Assembly (NCBI GenBank): GCA_963663765.2
Contig: CAXXUA010000002.1
Coordinates: 1 to 64,000, forward strand
DNA length: 64,000 nt
From: Candidatus Poribacteria bacterium
GTDB taxonomy: Bacteria > Poribacteria > WGA-4E > WGA-3G
Direction of reading: 5' to 3'
The translations under genes and the position numbers were made by a program. Shown here piece after piece: positions 4,574 through 37,807 of this stretch. The notes under the pieces are model-generated. The model was not told the origin of the DNA. It worked only from the letters and a program-made list of their open reading frames with translations, and did not search any database. Every line of letters begins with the position of its first letter. Position 1 is the first letter of the stretch.

Positions 4574-4607
4574 AAGATTAAGTCTCCAATACAATATAAA
4601 ATGAGTG

Positions 4608-4670
4608 TTATCCTTTATAGGCGTAGTTACGGTGCTGGATTCGCAGGTCAAAGTTGTCATCTGGATCCCA
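4608..4670 (-). pseudogene. Fragment: last 20 codons plus stop of a PhyH gene (homologous to 6874-6936)
   Basis: Encodes the identical peptide WDPDDNFDLRIQHRNYAYKG* with 5 synonymous nucleotide differences. Confidence 0.9.
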
Positions 4671-4815
4671 CATCCGTAACAGAACCTTGAATGTATTCAA
4701 CGGAAGCGTCTTTAGGTGGAGATAAATCAAGCACACGAAAATTATGATTTTCTTTCATATACGGGAGTGTCATGGTTCCAACATGACCGGATCCGCCTAC
4801 AAGAAGCACGTTCAT
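4668..4815 (-). pseudogene. Fragment: first ~49 codons of the epimerase gene (homologous to 1211-1358)
   Basis: Gap-free alignment with 14 differences in 148 nt; reads MNVLLVGGSGHVGTMTLPYMKENHNF..., fused out of frame to the PhyH fragment, with a stop at 4657-4659. Confidence 0.9.
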
Positions 4816-6840: not shown

Positions 6841-6873
6841 GAGATAAGCCTCCAATTCAACATAAATTGAGTG

Positions 6874-7743
6874 TTAACCTTTATAAGCGTAGTTGCGGTG
6901 TTGGATTCGCAAGTCAAAGTTGTCATCTGGATCCCACCTTGACATATCAGAAGGCACTTCATAAGTGAACTGCTCTGTATCTGATGGATATGGATTAGTA
7001 CTGCGTTCATGCAGCGCGCGCTGATACATTTTGCACCTTTGCGTCAAGAATTCGGTTTGCCACCATTTATAACGTGTGTTCCATCTCGGTGTACGTTGGT
7101 CGAAATAGATGACTCGGCGGAGTGTCCCACTTGTGTTGATCTTACTGCCGTGCAGGACTTTGGTATGATGCAGCAGAATATCGCCTGGCTCTACTTCTGC
7201 TGGCACAGCATCTGGACGGTCAAAATTCGCCACACCCTTTTCAATCTGTACCTGTGCTTCTTCAATTCCCCAAAGATGACTCTTCGGTATAACCCACACA
7301 CATCCATTGTCTACGGTGGAATTATCAATGTATATATCAACATTGAAGATTGGAAGATTTTCTCGGATTGCATTGCCGTCTCGATGCCATCTAACAGAGG
7401 AACCGTGTTTCGGTAACTTGAAAACAAGGGATTCATAGCACGGAATAAAATCGGGTCCTATGATTCTGTACAACAGGTCTCCAATGAAGGGATGTCCGAG
7501 AAGTCGCAACGAGAATTCATTCGGATGAGAATGCAAATAGGTGAGATAGTAGGGAATACCTTCGGGACCCCGCATACACCATTCATCTGCTGGACCGCCT
7601 GCTAAAATCTCATCAATGAGTCGTTGACTTTCGCCTTGTATGACAGCAAGTTCATCTGGTTGGATAACCTGTTTCAATATGAGGTATCCGTTTTCATTAA
7701 AGAACTGAATTTCGCTGTCAGTGATCTTTTGCATATTTGTCAC
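6874..7743 (-). CDS. Phytanoyl-CoA dioxygenase (PhyH) family Fe(II)/2-oxoglutarate dioxygenase
   Basis: FxENGYL start, WHRD (HxD), DNGC..PKSH, and LHGS..N.....RR motifs. Confidence 0.9.
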   Translation of the reverse strand: MTNMQKITDSEIQFFNENGYLILKQVIQPDELAVIQGESQRLIDEILAGGPADEWCMRGPEGIPYYLTYLHSHPNEFSLRLLGHPFIGDLLYRIIGPDFIPCYESLVFKLPKHGSSVRWHRDGNAIRENLPIFNVDIYIDNSTVDNGCVWVIPKSHLWGIEEAQVQIEKGVANFDRPDAVPAEVEPGDILLHHTKVLHGSKINTSGTLRRVIYFDQRTPRWNTRYKWWQTEFLTQRCKMYQRALHERSTNPYPSDTEQFTYEVPSDMSRWDPDDNFDLRIQHRNYAYKG

Positions 7744-9142: not shown

Positions 9143-11086
9143 ATGCGTATCATAAGAATTTCAGGATCGTTATTTCTTTCGATTGTTTTTCTCTCAGTTG
9201 TCGTGTTTCTCATCAATACCCAAATATCAAAGGAAAACATACAGACACATAATGAATTACTTGGCATATCCTTTTCTGAACCACCCGAGCCGAAACCGAA
9301 GTTACGTAAACCGATAGTAGGACATGTGAGCAATTCGTCAGATAAGGATGTACCTGTTGCTCCACTTCCAAAGAAGGTTACTAATACTAATCTTGCTGTA
9401 TCCAATAAACCTTCACCCATAGCATTTACAGGACCCGCAAAGCAGCAGAACGAAGTACCTGTTGATTTGACAAAATCAAAATCATTTGATTTACCAACTG
9501 CTTCTTCTACGAACATAACACAACCTAAAAAGCAGAATTTAAAAGTAAAGGTTCAGTATGATAGTGTGGTTCCTGCCGCACTTAAGCCAGTATCAGAATC
9601 TATTGCGCTCGGGAATGTTGAAGTGTCGAAACTTAGTCAAGGTATATCAATTACTGGAGAAATTTCTGCTAATAGTCCGCCAAACGGTGCAGATTTTGAC
9701 GATGTTTTCTACAAAAGCCATGGTACAAACCCATTCATTGATACAGAAGACGACAATTTCTCAACATTTGCAATGGATGTTGATACTGCATCTTACGCTG
9801 TGATGCGCCGATACTTACGGGATGGTGTTCTACCGCCTGCGGATGCAATTCGGGTAGAAGAATTTGTTAATACATTTGATTACAATTATAAACCTCCAAA
9901 CGAAGATGCGTTTGCTGTCCATATTGAAGGTGCACCCTCAATATTTGGTGAAGGTAAAAGGCTTCAATTGCTGCGAATAGGTATACAAGGTCGCGTCATT
10001 CCAGATACTGATCGCAAGGATGCAATCCTTACTTTTGTCGTGGATGTATCAGGTTCAATGGAACGTGAGAATCGGTTAGATTTGGTGAAAAAAGCGTTAT
10101 TCATCCTACTCAATCAGCTCCGTCCCGGCGATGAGGTAGGAATTGTCGTCTACGGTTCTAATGCACGTGTTGTGCTACCACATACTGGAATTGAGAATCG
10201 TGAATACATCTTTGAAGCGATTAGCAACCTTAGACCGGATGGGTCAACGAATGCTGAAGCTGGTCTTCGACTCGGTTATAAACTTTCCCTAAAAAATTCC
10301 AAGTCCGATTGCATCAACCGTGTAATTCTTTGCTCCGATGGTGTCGCTAATGTTGGAAAAACAGGTCCTGAGGCTATCCTCAAAAAAATTGGCGATTATG
10401 TTAAGGAAGGCGTAACACTTACAACCGTTGGATTCGGTATGGGTAACTACAACGATGTACTCATGGAACAACTTGCGAACAAAGGAAATGGTAGTTATGC
10501 CTATGTGGATTCACTCAAAGAAGCAAAACGTGTCTTTGTTGAGAACCTGACAGGCACACTGCAAGTTATTGCTAAAGATGCGAAAATTCAGGTTGAGTTT
10601 AACTCTGAAACAGTGAGTCGTTTTCGTCTACTCGGTTATGAGAATCGGTCGCTTGCACACGAAGATTTCCGTAAAGACGATGTTGACGCGGGAGAAGTCG
10701 GTTCAGGACATAGTGTAACCGCTTTATATGAGATAAAACTCCACGAAAACGCTGATGGCAAACTCGCTACTGTCTTTATACGACATGAGGACCCAGATAC
10801 ACAAAAGATCTCAGAAGTTAGAGAAACTATTGCTACAAATCAGTTGAAAAAGTCTTTTGCTGAAGCAACTACTGAGTATCAGTTTGTTTCTGCTGTCGCT
10901 GAATTTGCTGAAATCCTACGTGAAAGTTTCTGGGCAAAGGATGGTAGTTTAACAGAAGTTCAGAAAACAATTGAGGGTGTACTATCAGAACTTAACTCAG
11001 AAACACCTCAAGAAAAAGAACGAAAGGAAGAACTATTAAATCTTGTTCGACAAGTGCGCCGCTTGAAGGAACAGAAAGAAGGTTAG
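9143..11086 (+). CDS. Membrane-anchored YfbK-like vWA protein (vWF_A + vWA + DUF3520-like)
   Basis: N-terminal TM helix, Pro/Ser-rich linker, STFAMDVDTASY, MIDAS DVSGS, SDGVAN, TL..IAKD.KIQVEFN, RLLGYENR. ATG 9143 follows GGAGG. Confidence 0.85.
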   Translation: MRIIRISGSLFLSIVFLSVVVFLINTQISKENIQTHNELLGISFSEPPEPKPKLRKPIVGHVSNSSDKDVPVAPLPKKVTNTNLAVSNKPSPIAFTGPAKQQNEVPVDLTKSKSFDLPTASSTNITQPKKQNLKVKVQYDSVVPAALKPVSESIALGNVEVSKLSQGISITGEISANSPPNGADFDDVFYKSHGTNPFIDTEDDNFSTFAMDVDTASYAVMRRYLRDGVLPPADAIRVEEFVNTFDYNYKPPNEDAFAVHIEGAPSIFGEGKRLQLLRIGIQGRVIPDTDRKDAILTFVVDVSGSMERENRLDLVKKALFILLNQLRPGDEVGIVVYGSNARVVLPHTGIENREYIFEAISNLRPDGSTNAEAGLRLGYKLSLKNSKSDCINRVILCSDGVANVGKTGPEAILKKIGDYVKEGVTLTTVGFGMGNYNDVLMEQLANKGNGSYAYVDSLKEAKRVFVENLTGTLQVIAKDAKIQVEFNSETVSRFRLLGYENRSLAHEDFRKDDVDAGEVGSGHSVTALYEIKLHENADGKLATVFIRHEDPDTQKISEVRETIATNQLKKSFAEATTEYQFVSAVAEFAEILRESFWAKDGSLTEVQKTIEGVLSELNSETPQEKERKEELLNLVRQVRRLKEQKEG

Positions 11087-23355: not shown

Positions 23356-25524
23356 ATGAGACAATTTCATTTAGTTGTGTTTTCATGTATATTGTTTACT
23401 TTCTTATCCAATGGTTTTGGTAAAGACATAACACAGATTGGCTTACCAGAACATGCAAAATCACGCATTGGTATAGGAAATGCATACGATGTTTCTTATT
23501 CTCCTGATGGAACACTTCTTGCAGTGGCATCAACAATCGGTATTTGGCTGTATGAAACGGAAACCTACAAACCCCTTACGCTCCTTAGAGGACATACAGC
23601 GAGTGTACTAAATGTAGAATTTTCTACTGATGGAAAGACGCTTGCCAGCGGAAGTCATGACCACACGATTCGGATCTGGGATCCTAAAAACCATCAAATG
23701 ATCACTGTTCTGAAAGGACATCAGAAACCGATAACAGACATCACAATTTCACCTGATAAAAAAACTTTAGCAAGTTTTGGTTATCGTGATAATTCTGTCC
23801 AGTTGTGGAATACAGAATCTGGACAAACAATAGGTTCCCTAACGGAAAAAATAACGGGTGTCGTATCAATAGCATTTTCGCCTGAAGGTAAGATAATTGC
23901 TGTTGGTGATGTAAACGGAGAGGTATTGCTCTATTCTACAAAGACAAAAGCAAACATTGCTTCCCTTATAGGACATGTAAATGCCCCCAGCGATATAGAT
24001 GAACCTGGTTCAGTTACTTCGTTGGCATTTTCGCCAGATGGTAAAACGCTTGCAAGTGGCAGCAGAGATACAACTATTAGATTATGGAACACTAAAACTG
24101 CAAGACATATTGTAACACTTAGAGGACACACTGGTAGAATCACTACAATCGTATTTTCTTCAGATGGTAATACAATTGCAAGTGGAGCATCTTCCACGCA
24201 TTGGTCTTCAGATACTACTATTCAATTGTGGGATGCAAAAACCGGAAGAAACATAAGTTCCATAGAAACCCAAAATAGAAATTACTCATTAGCATTTTCA
24301 CCAGACAATGTAACTTTAGCAAGTATAGGTAGTTATAGTTATGTAAGTATATGGAAGATAAATACAGGTAAACTGAAAACCAAACTAAAAGCACAACAAA
24401 AGCAGTCTATACCAAAAAGAACTTACACAGATGGCGATAATAGAATTTATAGAAATGATGACGGGACATACAGGCTATTAAATATAGAAACCAATGAGCA
24501 GAAACCAATTTTAATAGACTTCAATTCGTCAATCAATAGGATAAAATTCTCACCAGATGGAAAACTATTAGCAATTCCTGATGATAGAACAATATGGTTG
24601 TGGGATGTTCAAACAGACACACTCAGAGCAACACTTACCGACAATACTTATTTGCTATCATCAATCAAGTTTTCACCCGATGGAAACTTTCTGTCAACTG
24701 CAACGCGCAATTCAGTTAATCTGTGGAATACAAAAACTGGAGGTATGATAGCAACCTATATGATTGAAAGTTCATCTAATACTTTCAAACACGAATTTTC
24801 TACAGACAGCAAATTGCTTGCAACCCCAATCCAAAAGGGAAAAATGATTCAAATGTGGGATTCCGAAACAGGACATCCACAGTTTTTACTTTTAGGTCAT
24901 GACAGAGAGGTTACCGCAATTCTATTCTCCTCTGATGGTAATACAATTATTAGCAGATCTTATGAGAAAGTTATCTTATGGGAAGCTAAAACTGGAAAAC
25001 GCATAACGACCATTAAAAGTCCTAAAGGATACAACCTATCACTTCAATTCTCACCTGATGAAAAAATATTAGTCGGTAATGCAAACTCCAGTGATTCACA
25101 AGTAGGAAAGAATACAATTTGGATTTGGGATCCCAAAACCGGACTGCAACTAAATACATTAAATGAACATGAAGAAGCAGTTACAAGTGTACAATTTGCA
25201 CCAGATAATAAAACATTGGTAAGTGGCAGCTTTGATAAAACCATTCGCTTTTGGAACGTTGAAACTGGACAACTTCTCACTACATTTAAGGGATATAAAC
25301 CGCGTGCTCCAATAACTATTTCGCCCGATGGAAGATTATTAGCATGTGGTAGCGAGAATGCAAAAGTTCTTGTGTGGGATATTCGCAGTGGAGAACTAAA
25401 AAAGTCGTTTAATTCCTACAATCCTGTCCAATCTATAATATTTTCTGATGATGTTAATACATTGACGACTAAAGGTGCAGATGGAACAACGCTTCTGTGG
25501 GATTTACAAGAAAAGAACCACTAA
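23356..25524 (+). CDS. Secreted WD40-repeat protein
   Basis: Signal peptide, DITQIGLPEHAKSRIG leader and WD40 repeats. Confidence 0.9.
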   Translation: MRQFHLVVFSCILFTFLSNGFGKDITQIGLPEHAKSRIGIGNAYDVSYSPDGTLLAVASTIGIWLYETETYKPLTLLRGHTASVLNVEFSTDGKTLASGSHDHTIRIWDPKNHQMITVLKGHQKPITDITISPDKKTLASFGYRDNSVQLWNTESGQTIGSLTEKITGVVSIAFSPEGKIIAVGDVNGEVLLYSTKTKANIASLIGHVNAPSDIDEPGSVTSLAFSPDGKTLASGSRDTTIRLWNTKTARHIVTLRGHTGRITTIVFSSDGNTIASGASSTHWSSDTTIQLWDAKTGRNISSIETQNRNYSLAFSPDNVTLASIGSYSYVSIWKINTGKLKTKLKAQQKQSIPKRTYTDGDNRIYRNDDGTYRLLNIETNEQKPILIDFNSSINRIKFSPDGKLLAIPDDRTIWLWDVQTDTLRATLTDNTYLLSSIKFSPDGNFLSTATRNSVNLWNTKTGGMIATYMIESSSNTFKHEFSTDSKLLATPIQKGKMIQMWDSETGHPQFLLLGHDREVTAILFSSDGNTIISRSYEKVILWEAKTGKRITTIKSPKGYNLSLQFSPDEKILVGNANSSDSQVGKNTIWIWDPKTGLQLNTLNEHEEAVTSVQFAPDNKTLVSGSFDKTIRFWNVETGQLLTTFKGYKPRAPITISPDGRLLACGSENAKVLVWDIRSGELKKSFNSYNPVQSIIFSDDVNTLTTKGADGTTLLWDLQEKNH

Positions 25525-25645
25525 AAGGAATATTACACGTTCAATCTCATTCTCACCAGATATAAAACGGTTAGCACGTACAACCCCAGGCAATCTCCGT
25601 TCAGATGTGATTAGGTTCTACTAGATCTCAATTGACAAATTACAA

Positions 25646-26741
25646 ATGCAAATTAACGCTTTACTTCAAACTAAAACATTAGGAGTTCTGGTCTATAAGG
25701 CGCATAAAGAACTTGTGAGATCAACACATTTTTCTCCAGATGGGAAAACAATAGCAACAATAAGTAACAGCGAAATTGTTTTGTGGGATGCAATAAAAGG
25801 GAAACACAAAACTATTTTGAAGGAACCACCGACACAGTTCTATTCATTTGCTTTCTCACCTGACAACAGGACAATTGCAACCGGTGATGGATGGAATAAC
25901 AATCAAGTCCGTTTGTGGGATACTCATACCGGTAAACTAAAGTCAGCACTTAAAGGACATAACGCTTGGATAGATTCCCTTGCCTACTCTCCTGATGGAA
26001 TGTTATTGGTGAGCGGCAGCAGGGACGGCATGATACGCGTATGGAACCCAAAAACTGGGGAACATAGGATGACTCTGGAGGGTCATACAAAGAAAATTTA
26101 TAGAATTGTTTTTTCTCCAAATGGAAAATTGTTTGCCAGTGCAAGTCAAGATAACACGTTGATTTTGTGGGATATGTTGTCAACAATACAAGAAGGGAAA
26201 CCTCAAACAATATTTAAAGTAAATACTACAAGTACCTACCACCTAAAGTTTTCTCTGAATAATAAAACACTCGTGAGTGGAGGTGGTGATAAAACAATAC
26301 GTCTGTGGGACACAAAAACTGGTCAAAGCAAGACTGCACTTCAAGGGCATACATCTTATATTGACTTCCTTGATTTTTCACCAGATGGACAAACATTGAT
26401 CAGCGGCAGTAGAGATTTCACTGTTCGATTATGGGATGAAAACAGGTACAATTCGCACTATCCTTGATAAGAATAGAGAACCATGGTCACAGATTCTGAT
26501 TTCACCCCATGGAAGAACATTAGTTACTCATGAAGACAGCGTAGCTTTCCATGTATGGAATCTGAAAACAGGTACACTCCGTTTTAGCATAAAAGCAAAA
26601 TATGTTGAATTTGATACCTTTGCGTTTATACACGGAGGATCAACACTCATCAGTATGGATTGGAATGATACTTTGCATGTATGGGATGCAGAGACAGGTG
26701 AATTCCAGATGAAAATCAAAACGCAGCACAAAATCAGATAA
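25646..26741 (+). pseudogene. 5'-truncated, frameshifted WD40 gene homologous to the C-terminal half of 29039-31291
   Basis: No signal peptide or leader. Shares GWNNN and ISPHGRTL motifs with 29039-31291. Apparent 1-nt deletion near 26438; degenerate WD40 remnants at 25530-25600. Confidence 0.8.
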
Positions 26742-26805
26742 AGATTTTGTAGGTGCGTAAGCCAGAAACCGGTCCGATGATTGACCAGCTGCTGCCAATG
26801 ACATA
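26734..26805 (-). pseudogene. Fragment: last 23 codons plus stop of the DUF6785-like gene (homologous to 31284-31355)
   Basis: YVIGSSWSIIGPVSGLRTYKIFI* vs YVIGSSWAIIGPVSGLRTYKIFI*; 4 synonymous changes and 1 conservative change. Confidence 0.9.
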
Positions 26806-26905
26806 AATCACTTTGAGCAATATTACTATAGCAATTAACACATTTGAATTTTGCATATCAAATCCTTAAGCAATATCAGAAGGAATTATAATTCAGAGAT
26901 AAACC

Positions 26906-29014
26906 ATGAGATACCTATTGGTGTATTTATTTACAATTTTGCTTTTATTGCCATTCGTTCATGCACAAGATTATACGCGCTGGGATTTACCCGATGGAGC
27001 ATTAGCACGTCTCGGTAAAGGCAGCATAATCGGTGATATTGTGTTTTCACCTGACAGCAAAATGCTTGCAATACCGAGTTCAATTGGGATATGGTTGTAT
27101 GATGCACAAACCTATAAAGAACTTGCGCTACTGAAAGGAAATACATCAAGAAATAAAAAAATAGAGTTTTCACCTAATGGTACAATCCTTGTCAGTGTTG
27201 ATGGTAGGGTGAATAATACTATTCGACTGTGGAATTTGTCAAACACTACAGATATTGTTAAACAAAAAGCAATCGAAATTAAACAAAAGAGCGATATTTC
27301 ATCAATTGCATTTTCACCTATTGGAGGAACGCTTGCCACCGTATGTAATGACAATACGGTAGTTTTATGCAATTCTCATACTGGTCATCATAAAAATACA
27401 CTAAAAGGACATACGAATCGTATCTCTTCAATTGCATTTGCAACCAATAACGTTATGTTGGCAAGTGGAAGTATTGATGGAACTGTCCGACTATGGAACT
27501 TGAAAACTGGGATACAGATGCATTTGCTAAATACAAATGGTAATCCTGTCAATGCAATAGCATTCTCAGGAGATAATAGTATACTTGCTTATAATACTTA
27601 TGAAGGACCTTTACATCAAAATAGAATCCGCTTCTGGAATGTGACAACTAAAACAAAAACACCAATTGTTATAGACAATGTTCACAACATCACTTCACTT
27701 GTGTTCTCTCCAAATAGGAAAACCATTGTTGGTATTGGGGAATTTGAAACAAGAATTTGGGATATAAAAACAGGTAAGCAGATACAAAAGTATCTGGGGA
27801 GTTTTACGATCTCCCCAGATTGGACACAATTCGCAAGTACGCAACGTGATAAAATACTGTTGTGGAATTCAATAACCGGTAAACATGTTAAGACGTTCAC
27901 TTGATATAATAAAGATGCAAGGAACGTAGTCTTTTCTCCTGACAGCAAAAAAATTGCAAACGGCAATAGTATCTGGGATATTGAAACTGACAAATATACT
28001 GCAATCAATGAAGAACATGTTTCAATAGGACGCTATATTAGGTTCACCCATGACAGCAAAACGCTTGCCAGTCACAGTTACCGGACATCAATGTGGTTCT
28101 GGAATGTTAAAACCGGAAAACAAATCGCCAAATTTGAAGGTGATATTTTCGCATTATCTTCAGATGGCAAAATGGTAGCATCCGGATTCAGAAACAGAAA
28201 TGTCACTCATCCGATTCAAGTGTGGGACACAAAAACGGGTAAACCGAAATTTTCTATTCACGCAAAACACCAGAGAGAAACCAATATACTAACCTTTTCA
28301 CCTGACAACAAAACGTTGGTTAGCAGCTGTGCCCCAAACGAGAAACTCAAAATATGGGACGCAAACTCTGCCAAACTTCAACAAACAATTTCTATTAAAC
28401 CTTATAATAGTAGTTACTTGACGTTTTCACCTGATAGCCAACTATTGGTAACTTGGAGTAGTATAAATATTGAGATGTGGGATTTCAAAAACGCAGAACA
28501 CATTACAACACTTAAAGGCCATACTGATGATGTAAACTTCATCCGATTTTCATCGAATGGTCTTATACTCGCAAGTGCAAGTACTGATGAGACTGTTTAC
28601 TTATGGAATACTAAGACAGGGAAACACATAGTAACATTATTTGGCCATACAGACAGAATAACTTCAATGGCATTTTCCTGTGATGGAAAAACCTTAGCAA
28701 CAGCAAGTAATGACGCGACAATACGGTTATGGAATACAAAAAATGGAAAACACAAGACGACTTTGGTTGGACACACAAGAAATATTAATACTGTAACATT
28801 TTCTCCAGATGGAAAAACGTTTGTAAGTACAAGTGATGATGGAACAATACGGTTCTGGGACACAAAAACATGGCATCATAAATTAACTCTTAATGTAGAA
28901 CCAGATATTGTTTTTCATGTAGCATTTTCTCCTGATGGAAAAATGTTAGCGATTGGTGGCGATACGATTCTCTTATGGAAATTAACTGATGTAATACGAA
29001 TGCAAAGTAGGTAA
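26906..29014 (+). pseudogene. WD40 gene interrupted by one in-frame TGA (27902-27904)
   Basis: The reading frame stays open for 62 codons after the TGA and joins ORF 28091-29014 in frame. The TGA sits where the Gly (GGA) of a WD40 'TGH'-like motif is expected. Confidence 0.85.
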
Positions 29015-29038
29015 CAGTGTTTGAGGAGATGAACATAG

Positions 29039-31291
29039 ATGAAATACATTAAGTCCACTTTGGAATCGCGCCAAATATTGTATGTAATATCAATCTTTAT
29101 GACATTACTTTTCTGCTTACAATGGCATTCATTTTACATTGCTGAAGCTTCGTACATTGCAACCACAAGAAGACAGGTTGCCTTTTCACCTGATGGTAAT
29201 AAATTGGCAGTATCTACTTCCAATGGTATTTGGTTATACGATAGCTACACCTATGAAAAACGCCAAACACTCAAAGAAAATTCAAAGTGGAATAGTTATG
29301 ATAATATCGTGTTTTCACCAAACGGAAAAATGTTAGCAGCCACAGATGTATACTCAAACAAAATTCATTTGTGGAATCTTAGAACTGGGAAAATCAAATT
29401 TACGTTTTTCGGGCATACTGAGAAAATTTCAGCAATCGCATTTGCTCCTGATAGTGCAATACTTGTAAGTTGTAGTTATGACAAAGCAATCAAGTTATGG
29501 GATGTTCAATCGGGTCTACTCCATGAAACTCTCTATCGACACACCAATATAATCTATTCTGTTGCTTTCTCTCCTGATGGAAATACTTTGGCAAGTTGTG
29601 AATATCAGAAAATACTCTTGTGGAATACTCACACGGGTCAAATCCAGAAAACTCTATACGGACATACAGACTTAGTCTCTGCTGTCGCCTTCTCTCCAGA
29701 TGGCAAGATGATTGCAAGTGCAGGATATGAAAAAATCTTGTTGTGGGATGCACATTCTGGTAAGCATCAAAATACACTAATAGGTCATAGAGGAAGCGTA
29801 GAATCTCTCGCTTTTGCTCCTGATGGTAACATGCTTGCTGGCGGATGTTATCAGGAAATTTTGCTATGGGATATCCAGAATGACAAACTTCTACATACAC
29901 TCAAAGATCCAAAGAGATTAACAGCATACCTATATTACAGTCCAACAGGTATAAATTCCATTTCGTTCTCACAAGATGGCAAAACAATCGCAAGTGTCAG
30001 TGAAGTAAAAAGCAATCAGATCCATTTATGGGACGTAAAAACTGGGAAATACAAATCATCTTTTGGAGAAATTCAACGTAACAGTCTTTATCTGCGAAAT
30101 ATCTCTGATGATGGAAGACTATTTACCCTGTCTTGTAATGGAAGCAGTCACAAAGAGGTGCTTATTGTATGGGAACTGCAAATAGATAAGTCGGAAACAC
30201 CAATCACTATGATCATGTCTAAGCCATCAAAAGAGATTTCTATATCTACTGCACATAATGAATACATTAAGTCAGTACATTTATTAACTGATGGAAAAAC
30301 AATTGCTACCGTTAGCAAAAATACAATTGCATTGTGGAATGCAGAAAAAGCAGAACACAAGGCAACATTAAAAGTCCAAGATGAACATATCTATTCTGTG
30401 GCATTCTCACCTGATGGGAAGACAATTGCAAGTGGAGGTGGTTGGAATAACAATGTAATTCGCTTGTGGGACATCGAAAATGGTATATTATTAGTAACAC
30501 TGAGAGAACATGCTTCTTGGATTGATTGCCTTGCGTTTTCTCCAAATGGAAAATTATTAATCAGTGGAAGTAGGGACAACACGCTTCGATTGTGGGATGC
30601 GAAATCCGGCAAACATCAAGCCACACTAAATGCAATTGGAGCATCTGTAAAGACTTTGGTGTTTTCGCGTGATGGAAACTCCTTGGCAACTGTCGGGGAT
30701 GACAACGCAATTCTGCTATGGGACATGTCGTCAATCTTGATAAACAGAAAACCAATTGCAATATTTCGAGAACATACTGACACAATTGATCAAATCACAT
30801 TTTCTCCGGATGGGAAAACCGTTGTCAGTGGTAGTCGTGATAGCACAATCCGTTCATACGACACAGTAACTGGTCAACACAAAGCCACACTGTACGGACA
30901 CACATCTTGGATTGACTTTCTTGCGTTTTCTCCTGATGGCGAGATCTTAGTTAGTGGAAGTAAGGACAATACTGTACGTTTATGGGATGCCGCAACTGGC
31001 AAACTTCGCACTATCCTAAATAAACAAAGGGGTGGAGATAAACATATTGTTATATCACCCCATGGGAGAACTCTTCTAACACAGGAAGATTATAAGACTT
31101 TTCATCTGTGGGATCTGAGAAAGGGTAGACACCGTATCAAAATAGGTGATGATAAAAAATCTTTCAGAGAATTCCTGTTTATAAGTGGTGGAATGAACCT
31201 AATAACGTTTGATTGGGGTACGTTTTATGTTTGGGATGTTCAAACAGGAAGATATAACATGAAAATACATTCCATACATATTTTCAGATAA
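29039..31291 (+). CDS. WD40-repeat protein with N-terminal hydrophobic segment
   Basis: WD40 repeats; lacks the LPxGA leader. The stop overlaps the convergent gene's stop. Confidence 0.9.
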   Translation: MKYIKSTLESRQILYVISIFMTLLFCLQWHSFYIAEASYIATTRRQVAFSPDGNKLAVSTSNGIWLYDSYTYEKRQTLKENSKWNSYDNIVFSPNGKMLAATDVYSNKIHLWNLRTGKIKFTFFGHTEKISAIAFAPDSAILVSCSYDKAIKLWDVQSGLLHETLYRHTNIIYSVAFSPDGNTLASCEYQKILLWNTHTGQIQKTLYGHTDLVSAVAFSPDGKMIASAGYEKILLWDAHSGKHQNTLIGHRGSVESLAFAPDGNMLAGGCYQEILLWDIQNDKLLHTLKDPKRLTAYLYYSPTGINSISFSQDGKTIASVSEVKSNQIHLWDVKTGKYKSSFGEIQRNSLYLRNISDDGRLFTLSCNGSSHKEVLIVWELQIDKSETPITMIMSKPSKEISISTAHNEYIKSVHLLTDGKTIATVSKNTIALWNAEKAEHKATLKVQDEHIYSVAFSPDGKTIASGGGWNNNVIRLWDIENGILLVTLREHASWIDCLAFSPNGKLLISGSRDNTLRLWDAKSGKHQATLNAIGASVKTLVFSRDGNSLATVGDDNAILLWDMSSILINRKPIAIFREHTDTIDQITFSPDGKTVVSGSRDSTIRSYDTVTGQHKATLYGHTSWIDFLAFSPDGEILVSGSKDNTVRLWDAATGKLRTILNKQRGGDKHIVISPHGRTLLTQEDYKTFHLWDLRKGRHRIKIGDDKKSFREFLFISGGMNLITFDWGTFYVWDVQTGRYNMKIHSIHIFR

Positions 31292-33221
31292 AAATCTTGT
31301 AGGTGCGTAAGCCAGAAACCGGTCCGATGATTGCCCAGCTGCTACCGATGACATAATCACCCAAAATCAAACCCAAAAAGAGCGGTGCAACACGACGGTG
31401 TAGCTTCAATCCACCGTGTCTTAAGATCATCAACTTCAGAAACCACGCAATGAAGAATGCAAACCAGAAATAATCCATCGCGAAACTAATTGCAAGCGCA
31501 TAACCCGCGGGATGGAAAGGCCACCACAGAAAATGCATTCGCATATACATCATGACAAATGTCAATAATGCACCGATTCCCATAAAACTTATACCGATTG
31601 GATTCGGTTCGGTTGGATTGTGCAACCATCGTTGAAGTCGTCCAAAAGACTCTCGACCAACCCAACCTTTGAAACCACCTGCTTTCGCTAGCGCACCATT
31701 CCGATAAGTTATGTCAAGATTTGCCCAAAACGTTGCTATTATGCCAACTACAATTGCTATCAACATAGCAATCCACAATCGTCTATTCCCCATACCAGTT
31801 GACTCCGCCAGTTTGAATGCTTCAATCTGATTCGGCATCGGATGATTTCGGTAGCCACGGTTGAACCAATAGAATAGTGACATAATCGTGAGGCTGCTTG
31901 TGTCAAACTGTCGAGTTCCACCTACCATCGCTAACATATCATGCGGATTGACATAGTAGATTTCATGCGGAGTTCCGAGTTCTGCACGTACGCGTGTTAT
32001 CGCAAAGGAGAGCAGGAAGTAGATACCAAAGAAAATACCAGCAACCCACAAAGTCATACCTGCTATGTTTGCAAAGATGCCGAGTGCAATTAGTGAACCG
32101 ATGATGCCTAACAATGCAGCACGATACGGCATCGGTTCATCTGAATCGTCAAGGTGTGATCTGAATCCAAGTGCTTTCTTCAATACCTCTTTCAGATGCC
32201 GACGGGTTACCCAGATTGCCAACAAAAAAAGGGCAACCCAAGCACCGTAAGCCTGTTCATTCAAAGCAGGGAAATAGCGGGTACCGAGGGCAGCAGCAAC
32301 GACAAATTCTGCTAAACGCACAACAAAGAAAAACCAACATGAAAAAGAAAGGTCAAGTGGTAAGAAAAATGCTAAACCAACTGCAAATGGATAAACAGAG
32401 ATACGGGTCCCACGTATTACACTCCAAGGACGTTCCGTGAAGATGTTTTGAAACACTGCTGTACGCTTGATGTATGGAATCTCTGGAAATTGCGGAAACA
32501 GATAGCTAATCCCATTTATGACACCGATGATGAATGCGATACTGAATCCAATCCACATCATCCGATTTTTCAACAACCGTATGCCGCCATCCTCTGAAAG
32601 ATGTAGGGGTAATTGTATGATAGGATATGCCAATTTTTCCTGTTCTGTCCATCGCTTGCGTACAAGCGTGTTAATGCATAACATCATAAACATCATGATG
32701 AGGAAGAACAGACCCCAAAATGCTAATGGTTTTATCCAAACTTGCAGATTGTGATTTGTATAAAAACTGGCTTCTCCTTCATAAAACCCTTGGAGACTAT
32801 GCGGGTCAGAAATGGTTAGCCAAGTAGGTAGATACCGAAAAAAGAGTGTTTGCCATTCATTCTCCTCAGTCGCAAAGCGGAAAGGGTGTGCAATACTACC
32901 GAACATATTTTGCATCGTGTCGTGACCAGCAAATGTGCATGAAATCGCAACCATGATGTAAACAGTTAGCAGTTCTCCCTGCTTTAGCATGTGTCGTGGG
33001 GCAATCTGCTTCATTAAGATATTTGCAATGACACACACAAACATAATGAAAATCGGTTGGATAAAAAGCGGTAGACATGAACCGTCGAGTGAGTAATATT
33101 TTACTTCAACAATTGTCATCCAATAAACATTGACGGGAATGAGCAGGACACCTAATAGGAGCGCGCGACCAGTAATTCGCATGGATGTTGAGTTTCTGTC
33201 ATGTGTGTGCATAGAATCCAT
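31284..33221 (-). CDS. Polytopic membrane protein, DUF6785/DUF6784-like (putative transporter)
   Basis: GEL..[VI]Y.M, W.E.EKL.YPI.QLP, TRVRAELG and WWP.HP.GY motifs; paralogue of 58563-60524. Start moved to avoid overlap with the upstream gene. Confidence 0.7.
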   Translation of the reverse strand: MDSMHTHDRNSTSMRITGRALLLGVLLIPVNVYWMTIVEVKYYSLDGSCLPLFIQPIFIMFVCVIANILMKQIAPRHMLKQGELLTVYIMVAISCTFAGHDTMQNMFGSIAHPFRFATEENEWQTLFFRYLPTWLTISDPHSLQGFYEGEASFYTNHNLQVWIKPLAFWGLFFLIMMFMMLCINTLVRKRWTEQEKLAYPIIQLPLHLSEDGGIRLLKNRMMWIGFSIAFIIGVINGISYLFPQFPEIPYIKRTAVFQNIFTERPWSVIRGTRISVYPFAVGLAFFLPLDLSFSCWFFFVVRLAEFVVAAALGTRYFPALNEQAYGAWVALFLLAIWVTRRHLKEVLKKALGFRSHLDDSDEPMPYRAALLGIIGSLIALGIFANIAGMTLWVAGIFFGIYFLLSFAITRVRAELGTPHEIYYVNPHDMLAMVGGTRQFDTSSLTIMSLFYWFNRGYRNHPMPNQIEAFKLAESTGMGNRRLWIAMLIAIVVGIIATFWANLDITYRNGALAKAGGFKGWVGRESFGRLQRWLHNPTEPNPIGISFMGIGALLTFVMMYMRMHFLWWPFHPAGYALAISFAMDYFWFAFFIAWFLKLMILRHGGLKLHRRVAPLFLGLILGDYVIGSSWAIIGPVSGLRTYKIFI

Positions 33222-33240
33222 TGGGGATTGAATAGAAATG

Positions 33241-35115
33241 TTATCGGTAGGTTTTAACAATTTCTGATATGACAATTCGTCTGTTTTTCCAATTGAGTCT
33301 GGCAGGGGGTATGAGATAAATTCCGTCAATAGGTATGTTTTCTTGATTACGGATTTCTCGTACAAGTTCAAGTGTCAACTGCATACCGAGTTCGTTACCT
33401 GCTGTGTCGCCAAGGTCACGGAACTTGTCCACTATAAACTGAGGTATATATAAGCCCAAATTGTCGCGAAGATAGGAAGCACTGCGTGCACTCGTTAAAG
33501 GCAGGATACCGAAAAGAATTTTAGTATTGAGATGTTCAGCGGCTTTATATGCGCGTTCAATGTCTTCAAAAGTCCATACAGGTTGGGTATATACGAATTT
33601 AGCTCCTTCTGTTACCTTGTTAGCGAAATGCTTGACGTGTGGGTCAAGGTTTTCTGCGATTGTGTATCCGCCGCCAAAGTAGAATCCACACGGGTCACCG
33701 ATTGACGAACCATCTGCGAGTTCACCATGATTAAGACGAGAGATGAGTTTCATGAGTTGGACGGCGCCACGTACATCAGGCACAAGGCTTGCAGATTCAT
33801 AAGGTCCTGCTTTTGGATGATCACCTGACAACGCGACGATTCCACGTATGCCTAACGCCTCAGCTTCTAATAGGTGTGATTGCATACTGATGAGATTGCG
33901 GGAACGTGTTGTCCAATGGATAAGTGTTGGAATGTTAGTCGCTTGCTGAAGCCGAAATGCTGTGCCGACTGCACCTATGTTCACGGCAGCACCAGAATTG
34001 TCAGTTACATCAAATAGGTCAACTCCTATTGCAGCAAGCACTTTAGCTTCCTTTAGCAATGCCCGTAATTGTGGGAAAGTGTTTGCCCGCGCTTCTACAC
34101 TGACGATTCGATTTCGAGTTTCAAAAACCTGTTGTACGGGGTTTTCTCTTTGTGTCTTGTATGTTGGTGTGCTTTTCGGTAGAACAAAGATGCGGGTTTG
34201 GCGTTTAATGGGTTTCATCGAAGCAACTGCTTGACGTATTCTGGCAATGTATTGCGGAGTTGTTCCACAGCAACCTCCAATCATGTTCGCTCCGAGGTCG
34301 ACTAATTTATGAACATAGTCTGTAAAGACATCTGCACCAACGGTATATGAAACAGCGATCTCACCTTGTTCTACCCTTGGATTGCCGGCATTTGGTTGGA
34401 CGACGAGTGGTACTCTGATGACAGGAGCAAGGAGTTCCATTGCTTGAACGAGATCGTGTGGACCTCTGCAATTGATACCGACAGCATGCGCACCCAGTTG
34501 CTCTAATTCTTGTGCAAAAACCCGAACATCCAGACCCGTACCAACCGTCCCACCTGAAATACCACTAATTTCAACAACCACTGGAACACCATAGGTCAGT
34601 GCTTGTTTTGTGGCGATTTCTGCCTGTTTTTGAGAAACAAAGGTTTCCAGAATCAGTAGGTCAACACCTTCATCAACAAGTGCATCCATTTGTTCTTTGA
34701 AGAGTTGACGTGCGGTTTTCGTAGAAGGTATTTCAGACGTAACATTTACATCATCTGCGTTGAAAGGAATTTGACCAACCGACCCAGCAACAAAACATCG
34801 TTTTCCCGTTCCTTCACGTGCTAATTTCACTCCTGCACGATTGATTTCCTTTACTTGATTGTCAAACCCATGGATTGCTAATGCTTCTCGATTTGCCTGA
34901 TATGTGTTGGTTTGGATGACATCTGCGCCAGCATCTGCATACGCTTGATGTATATTTACGACTTCGTCAGTATATTCATCAATGATGTTGCATGCGTCTA
35001 CACAAGGGAGATTCGCTGGTATCTGTTTGCGTAGTTCTGTTCCGATGGCACCATCACACACAAGAATTCGGTGTTCAATAGCTTCTATGAATGTATCATT
35101 AGTTGTAAGCGTCAT
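33241..35115 (-). CDS. yitJ: Bifunctional homocysteine S-methyltransferase / methylenetetrahydrofolate reductase
   Basis: DGAIGT, AGADVIQTNTY, GINC, PNAG and GGCCGTTP motifs, then an MTHFR-like domain (VTDN, RN...QS.LL, SGD, TQPV). Confidence 0.85.
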   Translation of the reverse strand: MTLTTNDTFIEAIEHRILVCDGAIGTELRKQIPANLPCVDACNIIDEYTDEVVNIHQAYADAGADVIQTNTYQANREALAIHGFDNQVKEINRAGVKLAREGTGKRCFVAGSVGQIPFNADDVNVTSEIPSTKTARQLFKEQMDALVDEGVDLLILETFVSQKQAEIATKQALTYGVPVVVEISGISGGTVGTGLDVRVFAQELEQLGAHAVGINCRGPHDLVQAMELLAPVIRVPLVVQPNAGNPRVEQGEIAVSYTVGADVFTDYVHKLVDLGANMIGGCCGTTPQYIARIRQAVASMKPIKRQTRIFVLPKSTPTYKTQRENPVQQVFETRNRIVSVEARANTFPQLRALLKEAKVLAAIGVDLFDVTDNSGAAVNIGAVGTAFRLQQATNIPTLIHWTTRSRNLISMQSHLLEAEALGIRGIVALSGDHPKAGPYESASLVPDVRGAVQLMKLISRLNHGELADGSSIGDPCGFYFGGGYTIAENLDPHVKHFANKVTEGAKFVYTQPVWTFEDIERAYKAAEHLNTKILFGILPLTSARSASYLRDNLGLYIPQFIVDKFRDLGDTAGNELGMQLTLELVREIRNQENIPIDGIYLIPPARLNWKNRRIVISEIVKTYR

Positions 35116-35190
35116 AGTAGAGTTGATAGTTGCTGTTGCGATTGTTGATATTAATGCGTTTTACTTAATCAATACCTTCGCCAATAATAG

Positions 35191-35497
35191 ACATTCTTCC
35201 AGATTGTGCGGTCAGTTGTAGCACATTCTTCCAGATTGTGCGGTCAGTTGTAGCACATTCTTCCAGATTGTGTGGTCAGTTGTAGCACATTCTTCCAGAT
35301 TGTGCGGTCAGTTGTAGCACATTCTTCCAGATTGTGCGGTCAGTTGTAGCACATTCTTCCAGATTGTGCGGTCAGTTGTAGCACATTCTTCCAGATTGTG
35401 CGGTCAGTTGTAGCACATTCTTCCAGATTGTGCGGTCAGTTGTAGCACATTCTTCCAGATTGTGCGGTCAGTTGTAGCACATTCTTCCAGATTGTGC
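35191..35497. repeat. Tandem array, 32-bp unit (gtagcacattcttccagattgtgc + ggtcagtt), 9 full copies plus 1 partial
   Basis: Units start at 35191, 35223 ... 35479; one C>T variant at 35273; no unique spacers. Confidence 0.95.
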
Positions 35498-35704
35498 ATA
35501 TAAATTATTCTGTCAGATTCTATCGTCAAATTAGACGCTATGATAATTAAAAATACTTCAACGAAAACCTGAAGTTATTTTTATTTATGTAATCCTAACA
35601 ATATCACAGAGCAATGGTAGATCAACACTATATACTCATTCAACTGAAGCACTCAAAAATGGCGAAGGTATTGCTTAATAGAAAAAGTTTGATACTCAAT
35701 GCTA

Positions 35705-37807
35705 TTAATTTGGGGTAATTGCAGATCCAAAAATGTACTCGTAGTCCCAAAGAAGTGCTGTGCCACCTTGACTGGCAGTAGCAATTGTTTTCCCATTCGG
35801 ATTAATTGAAATCATATTAACTGGATATGTATGTGCTTTGAGTCTTTTCTTTTCCAAACCGGTGTTGACATCCCACAATCGTACAGTAGCGTCTTGATTT
35901 CCGCTCATCAGGAGATTTCCATCGGGACTAAAAATCAGGGTATTTGCGTAACTATAAAGTGTTTCAATATTTTTCTTCAGTTTACCGGTCTCTACATCCC
36001 ACAACTGAATACCTAATATATCTCCTCCGCTTGCAAGTGTTTTTCCATCTGGACTGAATGTAATACAAGAAATTGTCCATGATTGAGAGGTAAGTGTTCT
36101 TAGCAATTCTCCTGTAGCAACATCCCATATATGGATTGTCTGATTTACGCTTCCATTGGCGATGGTCTTTCCATCCGGATTAAACGCTATTGCAATACGA
36201 TAGTAATTAGCCATATATCCAGTAAGTGTGTATATATGTTCACCTGTTTTGGCATTCCATAGTCGTATACTATTATCCTTGCTTTCACTTGCAATAAGTG
36301 TTCCATCTGGACTAAACAAGACTTTTCTTACAATATCCGTATGTCCAGTAAGTTTCTTTATTCGTTTTCCCGATTTGGAATCCCACAGACGTAGGGAATT
36401 ATCCCAGCTGCCGCTTGCTAATACAGAACCATCTGGACTGAACGCAACGGATGCAACGGTAGACCTATGACCTCGTAGTGTGTTAATATGTTTCCCTGTA
36501 GTGACATCCCACAAACGAATGGTTTTATCAGCACTTCCACTTGCAAGTGTCAATCCATCCGGACTGATATCCATACAAAATATGTCTCTCCCATGACCTT
36601 TTAGAATACTTCTATGTTTCCCTGTTTCAACATTCCACAAACGAACAGTCCAGTCATTTCCCCTACTTGCGAGTGTTTGTCCATCAGTACTAAGCTTAAT
36701 ACCTTCGGTTGTGTGTCGCAATAATCTGTGTGACAGTTTTGGAGAGATGGCTGTTTCACTAACAATGTCGGTATGTCCTGTGAGGGTATTCTTATGTTTT
36801 TTTGTAGTAATGTCCCAAAGATACACTATACTGTCTTGGCTCAAACTAATAAGCGTTTTTCCATCTGGACTAAATAATACTTTTTGTAGTTCTGATATAT
36901 GTTTCTTGAGAGTTTTCTTATGTTTTCCTGTTGCGACATTCCATAATTTGACGCTTTTATCATGGCTGCCACTTGCAAGCGTTCTTCCATCTGGACTAAA
37001 GTCCAAACTATATATAGCCTTTTTATGTCCTTTAAGTGTCAGTTTTTGTCTACCTGTTTTGACATCCCAGAGACAAATTATGTCGTCAAACCCACCACTT
37101 GCGAGTGTTTTGCCATCTGGACTGAAAGCGACAGCTCTGACTGATTTTTTATGACCTTTTAGAACTTGCTTTTTCTTTTTTTCTGCAGTATTCCATAATT
37201 CAACACCATTACCTCTGCATCTTGCAAGCATGAGACCGTCTGGACTACAATCTATGTTTACATATAAATCCATATAGAGTTCAACCTTATGTGTGTTTGT
37301 TGTGAGATCCCACAAATCCATCTTATAGGTATTCAGACTTGCAAGTGTATTCCCATCACCAATGAAAGAGACATATTTAAAGATTAAACTATCATTGGAA
37401 TCAAATTCACTTATGAATGTATTCTTATGCTTTAGTGTTTGCGTGTCCCATAGACGGATTGTTTTGTCTTTGCTTGCAGTTGCGAGTGTTTTGCCGTTGG
37501 GACTAAACGCTAAGCTTTGAACAGCACCTGTATGTCCAGTGAGAAGTTTCTGTTCTTCTAAGGTATTTGCATCATAGAACCAAATACCTGTAGCACTTGC
37601 GACTGCTAATTGTGAGCTATCTGGTGAAAACACAATATCAGAAATCTTACCTTTACCGAGTCGTGCTTTTACTCCCTTAGGTAGATTCCATTGGGGAGAA
37701 TCGTGGATGAATGCATCTGGACGATTAGGCGTAGAAACAAATCTAAATACTAATATGGCAAGAATGATGCCTATTACAAGTAAGATTGCACTCCATTTTG
37801 GTTTCAT
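35705..37807 (-). CDS. Membrane-anchored or secreted WD40-repeat protein
   Basis: N-terminal TM, DSPQWNLPKGVKARLGKG leader and canonical WD40 repeats. Confidence 0.9.
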   Translation of the reverse strand: MKPKWSAILLVIGIILAILVFRFVSTPNRPDAFIHDSPQWNLPKGVKARLGKGKISDIVFSPDSSQLAVASATGIWFYDANTLEEQKLLTGHTGAVQSLAFSPNGKTLATASKDKTIRLWDTQTLKHKNTFISEFDSNDSLIFKYVSFIGDGNTLASLNTYKMDLWDLTTNTHKVELYMDLYVNIDCSPDGLMLARCRGNGVELWNTAEKKKKQVLKGHKKSVRAVAFSPDGKTLASGGFDDIICLWDVKTGRQKLTLKGHKKAIYSLDFSPDGRTLASGSHDKSVKLWNVATGKHKKTLKKHISELQKVLFSPDGKTLISLSQDSIVYLWDITTKKHKNTLTGHTDIVSETAISPKLSHRLLRHTTEGIKLSTDGQTLASRGNDWTVRLWNVETGKHRSILKGHGRDIFCMDISPDGLTLASGSADKTIRLWDVTTGKHINTLRGHRSTVASVAFSPDGSVLASGSWDNSLRLWDSKSGKRIKKLTGHTDIVRKVLFSPDGTLIASESKDNSIRLWNAKTGEHIYTLTGYMANYYRIAIAFNPDGKTIANGSVNQTIHIWDVATGELLRTLTSQSWTISCITFSPDGKTLASGGDILGIQLWDVETGKLKKNIETLYSYANTLIFSPDGNLLMSGNQDATVRLWDVNTGLEKKRLKAHTYPVNMISINPNGKTIATASQGGTALLWDYEYIFGSAITPN

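Follow-up and report, generated by a model that had tools for sequence, protein, structure and literature searches.

A stranded end of a DUF6785/DUF6784 gene within a poribacterial WD40 gene array, and its possible origin in recombination between diverged haplotypes

The window analysed here, a whole stretch of 64,000 nucleotides (nt) from contig CAXXUA010000002.1 of a Candidatus Poribacteria bacterium (C2:1-64000 of our genome G000, which has 6,349,617 bases in 15 contigs), carries an array of WD40 genes with a short copy of the end of another gene stranded in its middle. This copy, which we call the scar (26734-26805, minus strand), comprises the last 23 codons and the TGA stop codon of a DUF6785/DUF6784 gene (hereafter the DUF gene), whose intact form lies downstream at 31284-33371, also on the minus strand, with Pfam matches to DUF6785 over residues 68-559 (E 2e-174) and to DUF6784 over residues 595-692 (E 2e-36). 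The last 72 nt of the intact gene (31284-31355) form the second copy of the repeat, and since the DUF6784 match takes up residues 595-692 of 695, the repeated piece is the end of the DUF6784 domain. With its homology ending at 26805-26811 the scar has none of the rest of the gene and cannot encode the protein, and from its sequence we read it as a gene fragment, that is, a piece of a pseudogene.

Behind the scar lies a segment of 4,550 bp (26806-31355) that holds two WD40 genes, H and I, and the intact gene end, such that two 72-nt direct repeats in the same orientation flank it. A spacer (26806-26905) between the scar and H has no detectable homologue, its local alignments to the region behind a comparable scar in the closest species (G016, described below), to DUF genes and to the DNA upstream of H in 7 relatives being no better than those of shuffled sequences. 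WD40 gene H (26906-29014, plus strand) is one frame with one in-frame stop codon at 27902-27904, and the H of another species, G020, aligns with it over 26906-28984 in a single frame (52.7% over 693 amino acids). The two H genes of G016, H1 and H2, are likewise split into two open reading frames (ORFs), and the H of G020 is one ORF of 697 amino acids. WD40 gene I (29039-31291, plus strand) is intact, encodes 750 amino acids (Pfam WD40, E 3e-98) and is convergent on the DUF gene. Besides H and I, the only ORFs of at least 80 amino acids in 26806-31355 are shadow ORFs inside these two genes on the opposite strand. Pfam searches returned WD40 and beta-propeller families alone for H and I, as they did for the upstream WD40 pseudogene G' and WD40 genes E and F, with no toxin or immunity domains among these five and no integrase or other recombinase in 26806-31283. 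A promoter and terminator scan over 26500-27100 gave no terminator-like site and one promoter-like site, inside H (27002-27030), with counts not above those of shuffled sequences.

Evaluating the repeat itself, we found the two copies identical at 67 of 72 bases with a longest exact common run of 37 nt (ending at 26783), and they are the only two copies of the 72-nt piece in the whole G000 genome (BLAST, E 1.4e-24, with the next match at E 0.74). The five differences, at 26743, 26746, 26784, 26794 and 26797 with partners at +4550, are on the minus-strand reading four synonymous changes (Ile, Gly, Lys and Ile) and one Ser/Ala replacement, and 22 of the 23 residues match between the scar and the intact C-terminus. 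Just outside the scar, identity at the same offset falls to 39 of 72 bases upstream (Fisher p 1e-7) and to 21 of 72 downstream (Fisher p 5e-16). Allowing one 1-nt indel, the match reaches 26811 (78 nt, 92.3%, BLAST), which defines a junction zone at 26806-26811 in which homology ends at 26805 or, with the indel, at 26811. In both copies the gene end overlaps the stop codon of a WD40 gene by 8 nt (TAA at 26739-26741 and 31289-31291), with the minus-strand TGA at 26734-26736 in the scar and at 31284-31286 in the intact gene. These observations agree with an earlier note on this DNA, which had described the repeated 72-nt 3' end of a DUF6785-like gene, its identical overlap with a WD40 stop codon at both places, and the four synonymous plus one Ala/Ser differences, and they also bear out its view of a gene tail stranded at a rearrangement junction. 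A dispersed repeat or mobile element was considered as the identity of the 72-nt piece and rejected, the genome having two copies only and positions 25000-36000 giving no Rfam match.

The WD40 gene that the scar overlaps, G' (25526-26741, plus strand), is an I-type pseudogene that is missing its 5' half and has an in-frame stop codon near 25620 and a 2-nt frameshift at 26435 (the frame change sits at 26435-26437), which leaves remnant ORFs at 25646-26467 and 26436-26741. Its best paralogue in the window is I, with which it is collinear over residues 389-650 (48.9%, 262 amino acids) and 653-750 (48.5%, 99 amino acids), other WD40 proteins reaching at most 39%; the earlier note had judged the two WD40 proteins on the near-identical tails to be about half identical, as these measurements confirm. 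Homology of G' to a full-length gene of G016, I2, begins right after the stop codon of WD40 gene F (25524), and residues 354-772 of I2 align at 72-80% in two frames. The two parts of G' have 75% and 80% amino acid identity to I2, as compared to 64% and 74% to another I-type gene of that species, I3. At the DNA level G' is 80.6% identical to G016 over 25526-26802. Over 25526-26810, blocks of G' that resemble I2 alternate with blocks that resemble I3, with 153 sites matching I2 only and 106 matching I3 only; examples are 26525-26625 (17 I3-only sites vs 2 I2-only) and 26325-26425 (2 I3-only vs 13 I2-only). This pattern suggests gene conversion among array members. A metagenome scan for closer relatives of G' was uninformative, with 4 loci confirmed out of 55 candidate stretches and a best identity of 39%.

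Divergence estimates (Nei-Gojobori) revealed that the two tails are young whereas the WD40 bodies attached to them are old. The scar and the intact tail differ by a synonymous divergence (dS) of 0.30 (4 of 16 sites) and a non-synonymous divergence (dN) of 0.019, whereas the two parts of G' stand at dS 1.68 and 1.47 and dN 0.40 and 0.47 from their own I. Between G' and the G016 genes I2 and I3, dS is 0.47-0.92 and dN 0.11-0.16, which is the range expected of species-level orthologues; for G000 vs G016, four conserved flank genes gave dS 0.39-0.62 and dN 0.035-0.084, and the positional orthologues E and F gave dS 2.0 and 1.4 with dN 0.38. A maximum-likelihood tree built from the C-terminal halves of 16 I-type proteins and 2 outgroups places G' with G016_I2 and G041c10, which belong to two other Poribacteria species (support 99/98), and then with G016_I3 (96/96), and not with its own I, which sits on a terminal branch 0.73 long and groups weakly with G020 (81/86). 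From dS and tree position it follows that the split between G' and I is far older than that between these species, and the pair is thus an old divergence rather than a case of rapid protein change in recent copies. The earlier note had argued for much faster evolution of the WD40 genes than of their flanks, and this part of it is not supported as worded, given that the synonymous sites of the pair are saturated and G' clusters with the genes of other species; the dN/dS of the pair, about 0.24-0.32, at which synonymous divergence is what the replacement sites would lead one to expect, likewise belongs to old genes and not to ones recently copied and then rapidly diverged.

The tail has a history of its own. 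In the C-terminal 23 residues, 19 of 24 orthologous tails show no more than one change from the common form. The scar finds its best match in its own intact tail and vice versa (67/72, with G020 and G003 next at 61/72), and these two alone share a Ser codon, which occurs neither in 23 further orthologous tails nor in the two tail remnants of G016, other species having Ile, Thr, Ala or Val at that position. The shared Ser codon and the mutual best match indicate that the scar arose in the lineage of the window after its split from G016. A mid-array scar is also present in G016, with at least 98 nt of homology and 7 non-synonymous changes, and it is closest to G020-type tails (62/72, vs 55/72 to the intact tail of the window), while the DNA downstream of it does not align with that of the window (243 of 300 shuffles score as well). 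Because the two scars have unlike junctions and unlike sequence affinities, the simplest reading is one of at least two events. That four of the five changes in our scar are synonymous gives a likelihood ratio of 4-8 over a scar evolving neutrally since an in-situ copy (p 0.056-0.067), and the excess is suggestive of divergence at a time when both copies were functional gene ends.

To see the arrangement in populations, we used Logan contigs of public runs with at least 85% likeness to the window, which are contigs and not long reads; among the 7 listed runs there is no RNA data set on record. One run from another study and under another organism label (X6) has a contig of 1,069 nt that spans 26598-27652 with 19 differences and crosses both edges of the scar, and a second of 7,571 nt that covers 27627-31500 with 27 differences. 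A further X6 contig over 25531-26565 is about 87% identical and lacks 26217-26342, whereas the contigs from 26598 onwards are 98-99% identical; as the contigs on either side of 26565/26598 are not joined to each other, we claim no breakpoint there. The gap at 26217-26342 is exactly 126 nt, one WD40 blade. X6 appears to have a full-length G, the gene of which G' is the remnant, followed by the scar and H-I. In two other runs (X2 and X5), contigs over 25400-26776, 26754-31326 and 31304-31500 have 0 differences each, so that alleles specific to the scar are contiguous with G' to the left and with H to the right. A sponge metagenome (X1) holds a contig of 826 nt that covers 26397-26733 (2 differences) and continues at 31284-31500 (3 differences), thereby joining G straight to the DUF gene without H-I; there is also no X1 contig over 27236-28663, which we count only together with this joining contig. 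Both X1 and X6 have an extra 'AT' behind 26435 that removes the frameshift of G'. The bridging and allele-contiguous contigs show that the arrangement is no assembly artefact, and the 4.55-kb segment is polymorphic, with stacked and unstacked forms coexisting in nature.

Comparisons with other Poribacteria place the locus in context. The DUF gene has an orthologue of 85-91% amino acid identity in the genus along with many paralogues of 40-48%, and a match to its last 117 nt occurs in 35 of 40 genus genomes. An H-type gene followed by an I-type gene convergent on the DUF orthologue was found in 4 of the 19 loci fetched first (G020, G003, G005 and G014) and in 4 of 4 further loci that keep a DUF gene (G044, G054, G051 and G050); in these eight species H is 38-55% and I 42-49% identical to that of the window, with the DUF protein at 84-91%, and the closest relatives of I and H reach 42-55%. 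The MetH-like neighbour gene is 81-93% identical across relatives, and by this gene the closest species is G016 (93% of amino acids). Its array reads E, F, X, H1, I1, I2, DUF-tail scar, H2, I3, DUF tail and MetH-like gene, and its DUF gene is deleted save for the first 54 codons. Against the DNA of the window, the conserved flanks of G016 are 86-89% identical and the array genes E, F and I only 64-68%, G' being the exception (see above), and the proteins of the positional orthologues E, F, H and I are 43-51% identical, no closer than in more distant species. Truncated DUF gene ends that start at the stop codon occur in three genomes: G000 (to +72-77), G016 (+66, at L050 12302-12367 where the gene is deleted, and at least +98) and G011 (+67, at L108 about 9968-10034, where the truncated copy is a deletion remnant adjoining the MetH-like gene). 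The nearness of the breaks at +66, +67 and +72 to +77 could reflect a fragile or preferred site, or chance.

Also near the MetH-like gene of the window, between it and a WD40 gene, is a tandem array of 32-nt units at 35191-35497 (9.6 copies, 99%), and an unrelated tandem array of 32-nt units lies at 50452-51433 (30.7 copies, 98%) and is open in three minus-strand frames. Neither resembles clustered regularly interspaced short palindromic repeats (CRISPR), because spacers are absent.

Taken as a whole, the locus somewhat favours a reading in which the 72 nt are a functionless scar of recombination between diverged haplotypes, with one end anchored in homology and the other an illegitimate joint. 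An I-type gene, G, would once have been the last gene of the array and would have overlapped the end of the convergent DUF gene. A second, diverged haplotype of this locus would then have supplied incoming DNA that comprised the spacer, H, I, the DUF gene end and sequence past it. To the right, a homologous crossover would have taken place within or beyond the conserved DUF gene; to the left, an illegitimate joint would have linked the incoming DNA to the resident DUF gene at a point 72-77 nt ahead of the stop codon. G would then keep the resident 72-nt gene end stranded upstream of the newcomer, the new H-I pair would be followed by an intact DUF gene, and the displaced G may afterwards have decayed, losing its 5' part and acquiring a stop codon and a frameshift. 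A candidate for the right-side anchor is the DUF orthologue, which is well conserved throughout the genus (at least 22 of 23 C-terminal residues in 19 of 24 orthologues). The repeat, the 4,550-bp segment, the unequal ages of tails and WD40 bodies, the degraded state of G' and the polymorphic presence of the segment are all observed; we infer that the event was an insertion and not a loop-out, and that homology acted on one side only. This agrees with the proposal of the earlier note that different alleles are stacked here, which dS, the tree and the public contig without H-I support.

Several points weigh against this reading. A loop-out deletion between the repeats would explain the X1 contig just as well, and the X2 and X5 contigs break in the shared exact 37-mer (26754-26776) and so do not themselves phase the scar. 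The test on synonymous and non-synonymous changes rests on five changes and is not significant alone, and the up to 4-5 nt (TCAC) of possible microhomology at 26806-26811 could be chance. No donor haplotype was found among the fetched loci or in the metagenome scan. Lastly, G016 shares the general layout, and an older common duplication, with the scar of G000 renewed later, is possible.

In such an older event, [H, I, gene end] would have been duplicated in tandem in the ancestor of G000 and G016, and in G000 the scar would later have been converted from the intact tail and the H-I allele replaced. We regard this as rather unlikely, though the most probable of the rival accounts. The equal order of I2, scar, H2, I3 and tail in G016 is in its favour, and the mixed affinities of G' to I2 and I3 show that these genes do recombine with one another; yet the scar of G016 is longer and decayed and has G020-like, probably ancestral, states, whereas that of G000 stops at 72-77 nt with 100 nt beyond it that are not homologous to the DNA behind the G016 scar (the 243 of 300 shuffles given above), and three extra events are needed; a conversion tract would also have to start exactly at the gene boundary. 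A simple in-situ tandem duplication, whose unit the repeats would bound, was rejected on the unequal ages, since near-identical gene copies would be expected in place of a G'/I dS of 1.47-1.68 vs 0.30 in the tails and a G' that groups with other species. It is also conceivable, though quite improbable, that E-F-H-I-DUF was the original order and that a foreign piece of 1.28 kb, made of the 3' half of an I-type gene and 72 nt of DUF gene end, was put between F and H. E-F-H-I convergent on the DUF gene is indeed the common layout in other species (the 4 of 19 and 4 of 4 loci above), and the homology of G' does start immediately after the F stop codon. Such a piece would need two illegitimate joints with no homology anchor, however, while G' looks vertically inherited when compared to the closest species (81% of DNA, as opposed to 64-68% for E, F and I), and in a near-identical strain the X1 contig has G in terminal position beside the DUF gene.

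Were H-I a cassette that integrates site-specifically with the DUF gene end as its attachment (att) site, the 72-nt repeats would be attL and attR, but the segment encodes no integrase or recombinase over 26806-31283 (H and I giving WD40 families only), the breakpoints are not identical, and 8 other species have H-I beside the DUF gene as their ordinary chromosomal arrangement. We therefore think this very unlikely, even with direct repeats of a target gene's 3' end flanking the insert, independent truncations falling close together at +66 (G016), +67 (G011) and +72 to +77 (G000), and a 253-nt PhyH gene end doubled around a Peptidase_M78/DUF4411 pair elsewhere in the genome (see below). Just as little credence goes to the idea that the fragment has been kept for a function, either as a membrane mini-ORF of 40 codons or as a terminator-like hairpin that ends G'. 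The ORF (26734-26856, minus strand), which we consider incidental, opens with 16-17 new codons that run on into the scar, begins with ATG at 26856-26854 and has AAGGA 7 nt upstream of this ATG; the hairpin (26721-26758) lies over the G' stop codon and the start of the scar with a z score of -3.4, 1 of 200 shuffles being as stable; and four of five changes are synonymous. Against this, the ORF is not conserved, the equivalent scar of G016 being decayed with its 7 non-synonymous changes and having unrelated DNA upstream; the intact copy has no such hairpin (z 0.29); and we found no terminator-like site, no promoter-like site for the ORF and no Rfam match. As the upstream gene G' is dead, no terminator is needed there. 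Finally, it is scarcely credible that the 72-nt repeat created a chimera in the assembly. The short-word assemblies X2 and X5 do break within the shared 37-mer, but the X6 contig from another study runs through 26598-27652, the X2 and X5 contigs tie the scar alleles to G' and to H with 0 differences, and G016 independently carries a mid-array tail; the chimera that the earlier note had named as a possible refutation is thus not what we find. The 72 nt are most likely a functionless scar, and functionless they are under every reading save those of a functional fragment and an assembly artefact.

Evaluating whether such scars recur, we turn to a second one in the window, scar 1 (4608-4814, minus strand), which is made of the tail of a PhyH gene (4608-4671) and the head of an epimerase gene (4668-4814) that overlap by 4 nt, the gene identities being those given by Pfam (PhyH and Epimerase). 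Positions 4332-4671 match 6599-6937 at 89.7%, a stretch that takes in a WD40 5' end and the last 64 nt of the PhyH gene (6874-7743), and positions 4668-4814 match 1211-1357 at 91%, these being the first 147 nt of the epimerase gene (621-1358). The WD40 genes on either side are 49% identical in amino acids (dS 1.56, dN 0.36), and of the boundary pieces the epimerase head has dS 0.26 and the PhyH tail 5 synonymous and 0 non-synonymous changes. By its sequence scar 1 reads as a joint at which the end of a unit meets the start of that unit, with a 4-nt overlap that could be chance. Inside one such unit, between WD40 gene 2543-4660 and the epimerase gene, there is an insertion sequence-type DDE transposase gene at 1396-2454.

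Across the G000 genome, a screen for two-copy direct repeats of 45-450 nt, at least 85% identical and 300-30,000 nt apart, returned 22 repeats, the pair 4332-4671 / 6599-6937 having been dropped by the single-match filter. Four of the 22 lie within 300 nt of WD40-like DNA, two of those being internal to WD40 genes, where 6.9% of the genome is that near; WD40-like DNA itself (tblastn with the WD40 proteins of the window, E 1e-15 or better) makes up 354,149 of 6,349,617 bases, or 5.6%. These numbers are too small to claim an association with WD40 genes, and at least 2 clear gene-end scars elsewhere flank other cargo. At C5:533864-534116 / 536444-536696 (L107) a PhyH-family gene has its final 253 nt duplicated 2.6 kb downstream at 98%, and the two copies enclose one gene for a Peptidase_M78 (IrrE-like) protein and one for a DUF4411 protein, in the layout of a cassette insertion. 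At C4:252379-252593 / 255475-255689 (L106) a second copy of the final 215 nt of a xylose-isomerase-like TIM-barrel gene (Pfam AP_endonuc_2) lies 3.1 kb downstream at 92.6%, and the two copies enclose three ORFs without a Pfam match. The earlier note had seen in the two scars of the window a recurring mechanism tied to WD40 genes. Its recurrence is upheld by the composite junction of scar 1 between 49%-identical WD40 genes and by the scar that G016 has of its own, whereas its specificity for WD40 genes is not, in view of the few repeats near WD40-like DNA and the two gene-end scars with other cargo.

Several known systems resemble this one in part. Genomic islands integrate at gene 3' ends and bring a replacement gene end, which duplicates the attachment site as attL and attR; the locus is like these in that a direct repeat of a gene 3' end flanks an insert while the target gene stays intact, and unlike them in that the insert has no integrase, the repeats are 93% and not 100% identical, and the insert is the usual gene pair of the locus. 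Junctions of segmental tandem duplications likewise join the end of a unit to its start and have a partial boundary gene in the proximal copy with the distal gene intact, which is exactly the form of scar 1 with its 4-nt overlap at the joint, but here the genes were not identical at birth, with dS 1.5-1.7 in the WD40 bodies vs 0.26-0.70 in the boundary fragments. One-sided homology combined with illegitimate joining is a model outlined for orphan cassette arrays in type VI secretion system clusters of Vibrio and in Rhs loci (PMC5361080). As in such orphan or displaced cassette arrays, a conserved anchor gene stands here beside a highly variable cassette, the incoming allele takes the place on the anchor side, the older allele is moved away with a small part of the anchor gene still attached, arrays form as this happens again and again, and stacked arrays can then spread by ordinary homologous recombination. 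Unlike in those arrays, where the 5' core of the variable gene serves as anchor, a separate gene does so here, convergent and coding for a DUF6785/DUF6784 membrane protein; the cassettes encode WD40 beta-propellers that have signal peptides but not the toxin or immunity signature of polymorphic toxin arrays; and the displaced copy decays rather than being kept, with no donor identified. Stranded gene ends at rearrangement joints and arrays of displaced alleles are thus already known kinds. New are a conserved convergent membrane-protein gene as the anchor for stacked, deeply diverged WD40 alleles and the finding, seen directly in sponge metagenomes, that the array occurs in stacked and unstacked form; among the listed titles and opening lines of abstracts on Poribacteria and WD40, we found no account of either or of hypervariability of the array.

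By itself the scar is an ordinary by-product of recombination, and its worth is that of a dated marker. WD40 and other eukaryote-like repeat proteins are described as abundant in Poribacteria and suspected of a role in host interaction (PMC3909097). A bolder possibility, which our analysis makes conceivable but which we hold to be unlikely, is that the DUF gene end may be the preferred breakpoint and anchor of a stacking system that diversifies secreted WD40 'eukaryote-like' proteins in Poribacteria, with deep allelic classes exchanged between strains or species and piled up beside the membrane-protein gene. Hints in this direction are the four independent truncated gene ends in three genomes (+66, +67, +72 to +77, and at least +98), the array orthologues of G016 at 43-51% of amino acids (dS 1.4-2.0 for E and F), no closer than those of more distant species, while the flanks are at dS 0.4-0.6, and the insert-plus and insert-minus haplotypes that coexist in sponge metagenomes. 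If true, the system would be a parallel to the orphan arrays of polymorphic toxins, but for host-interaction proteins. For this sponge symbiont, the recombination reading that we favour would mean that the array grows by stacking pre-existing, deeply diverged alleles and not by copy-and-diverge, with displaced alleles left to decay. Loci whose alleles are far older than their flanks are candidates for balancing or diversifying selection by host or phages.

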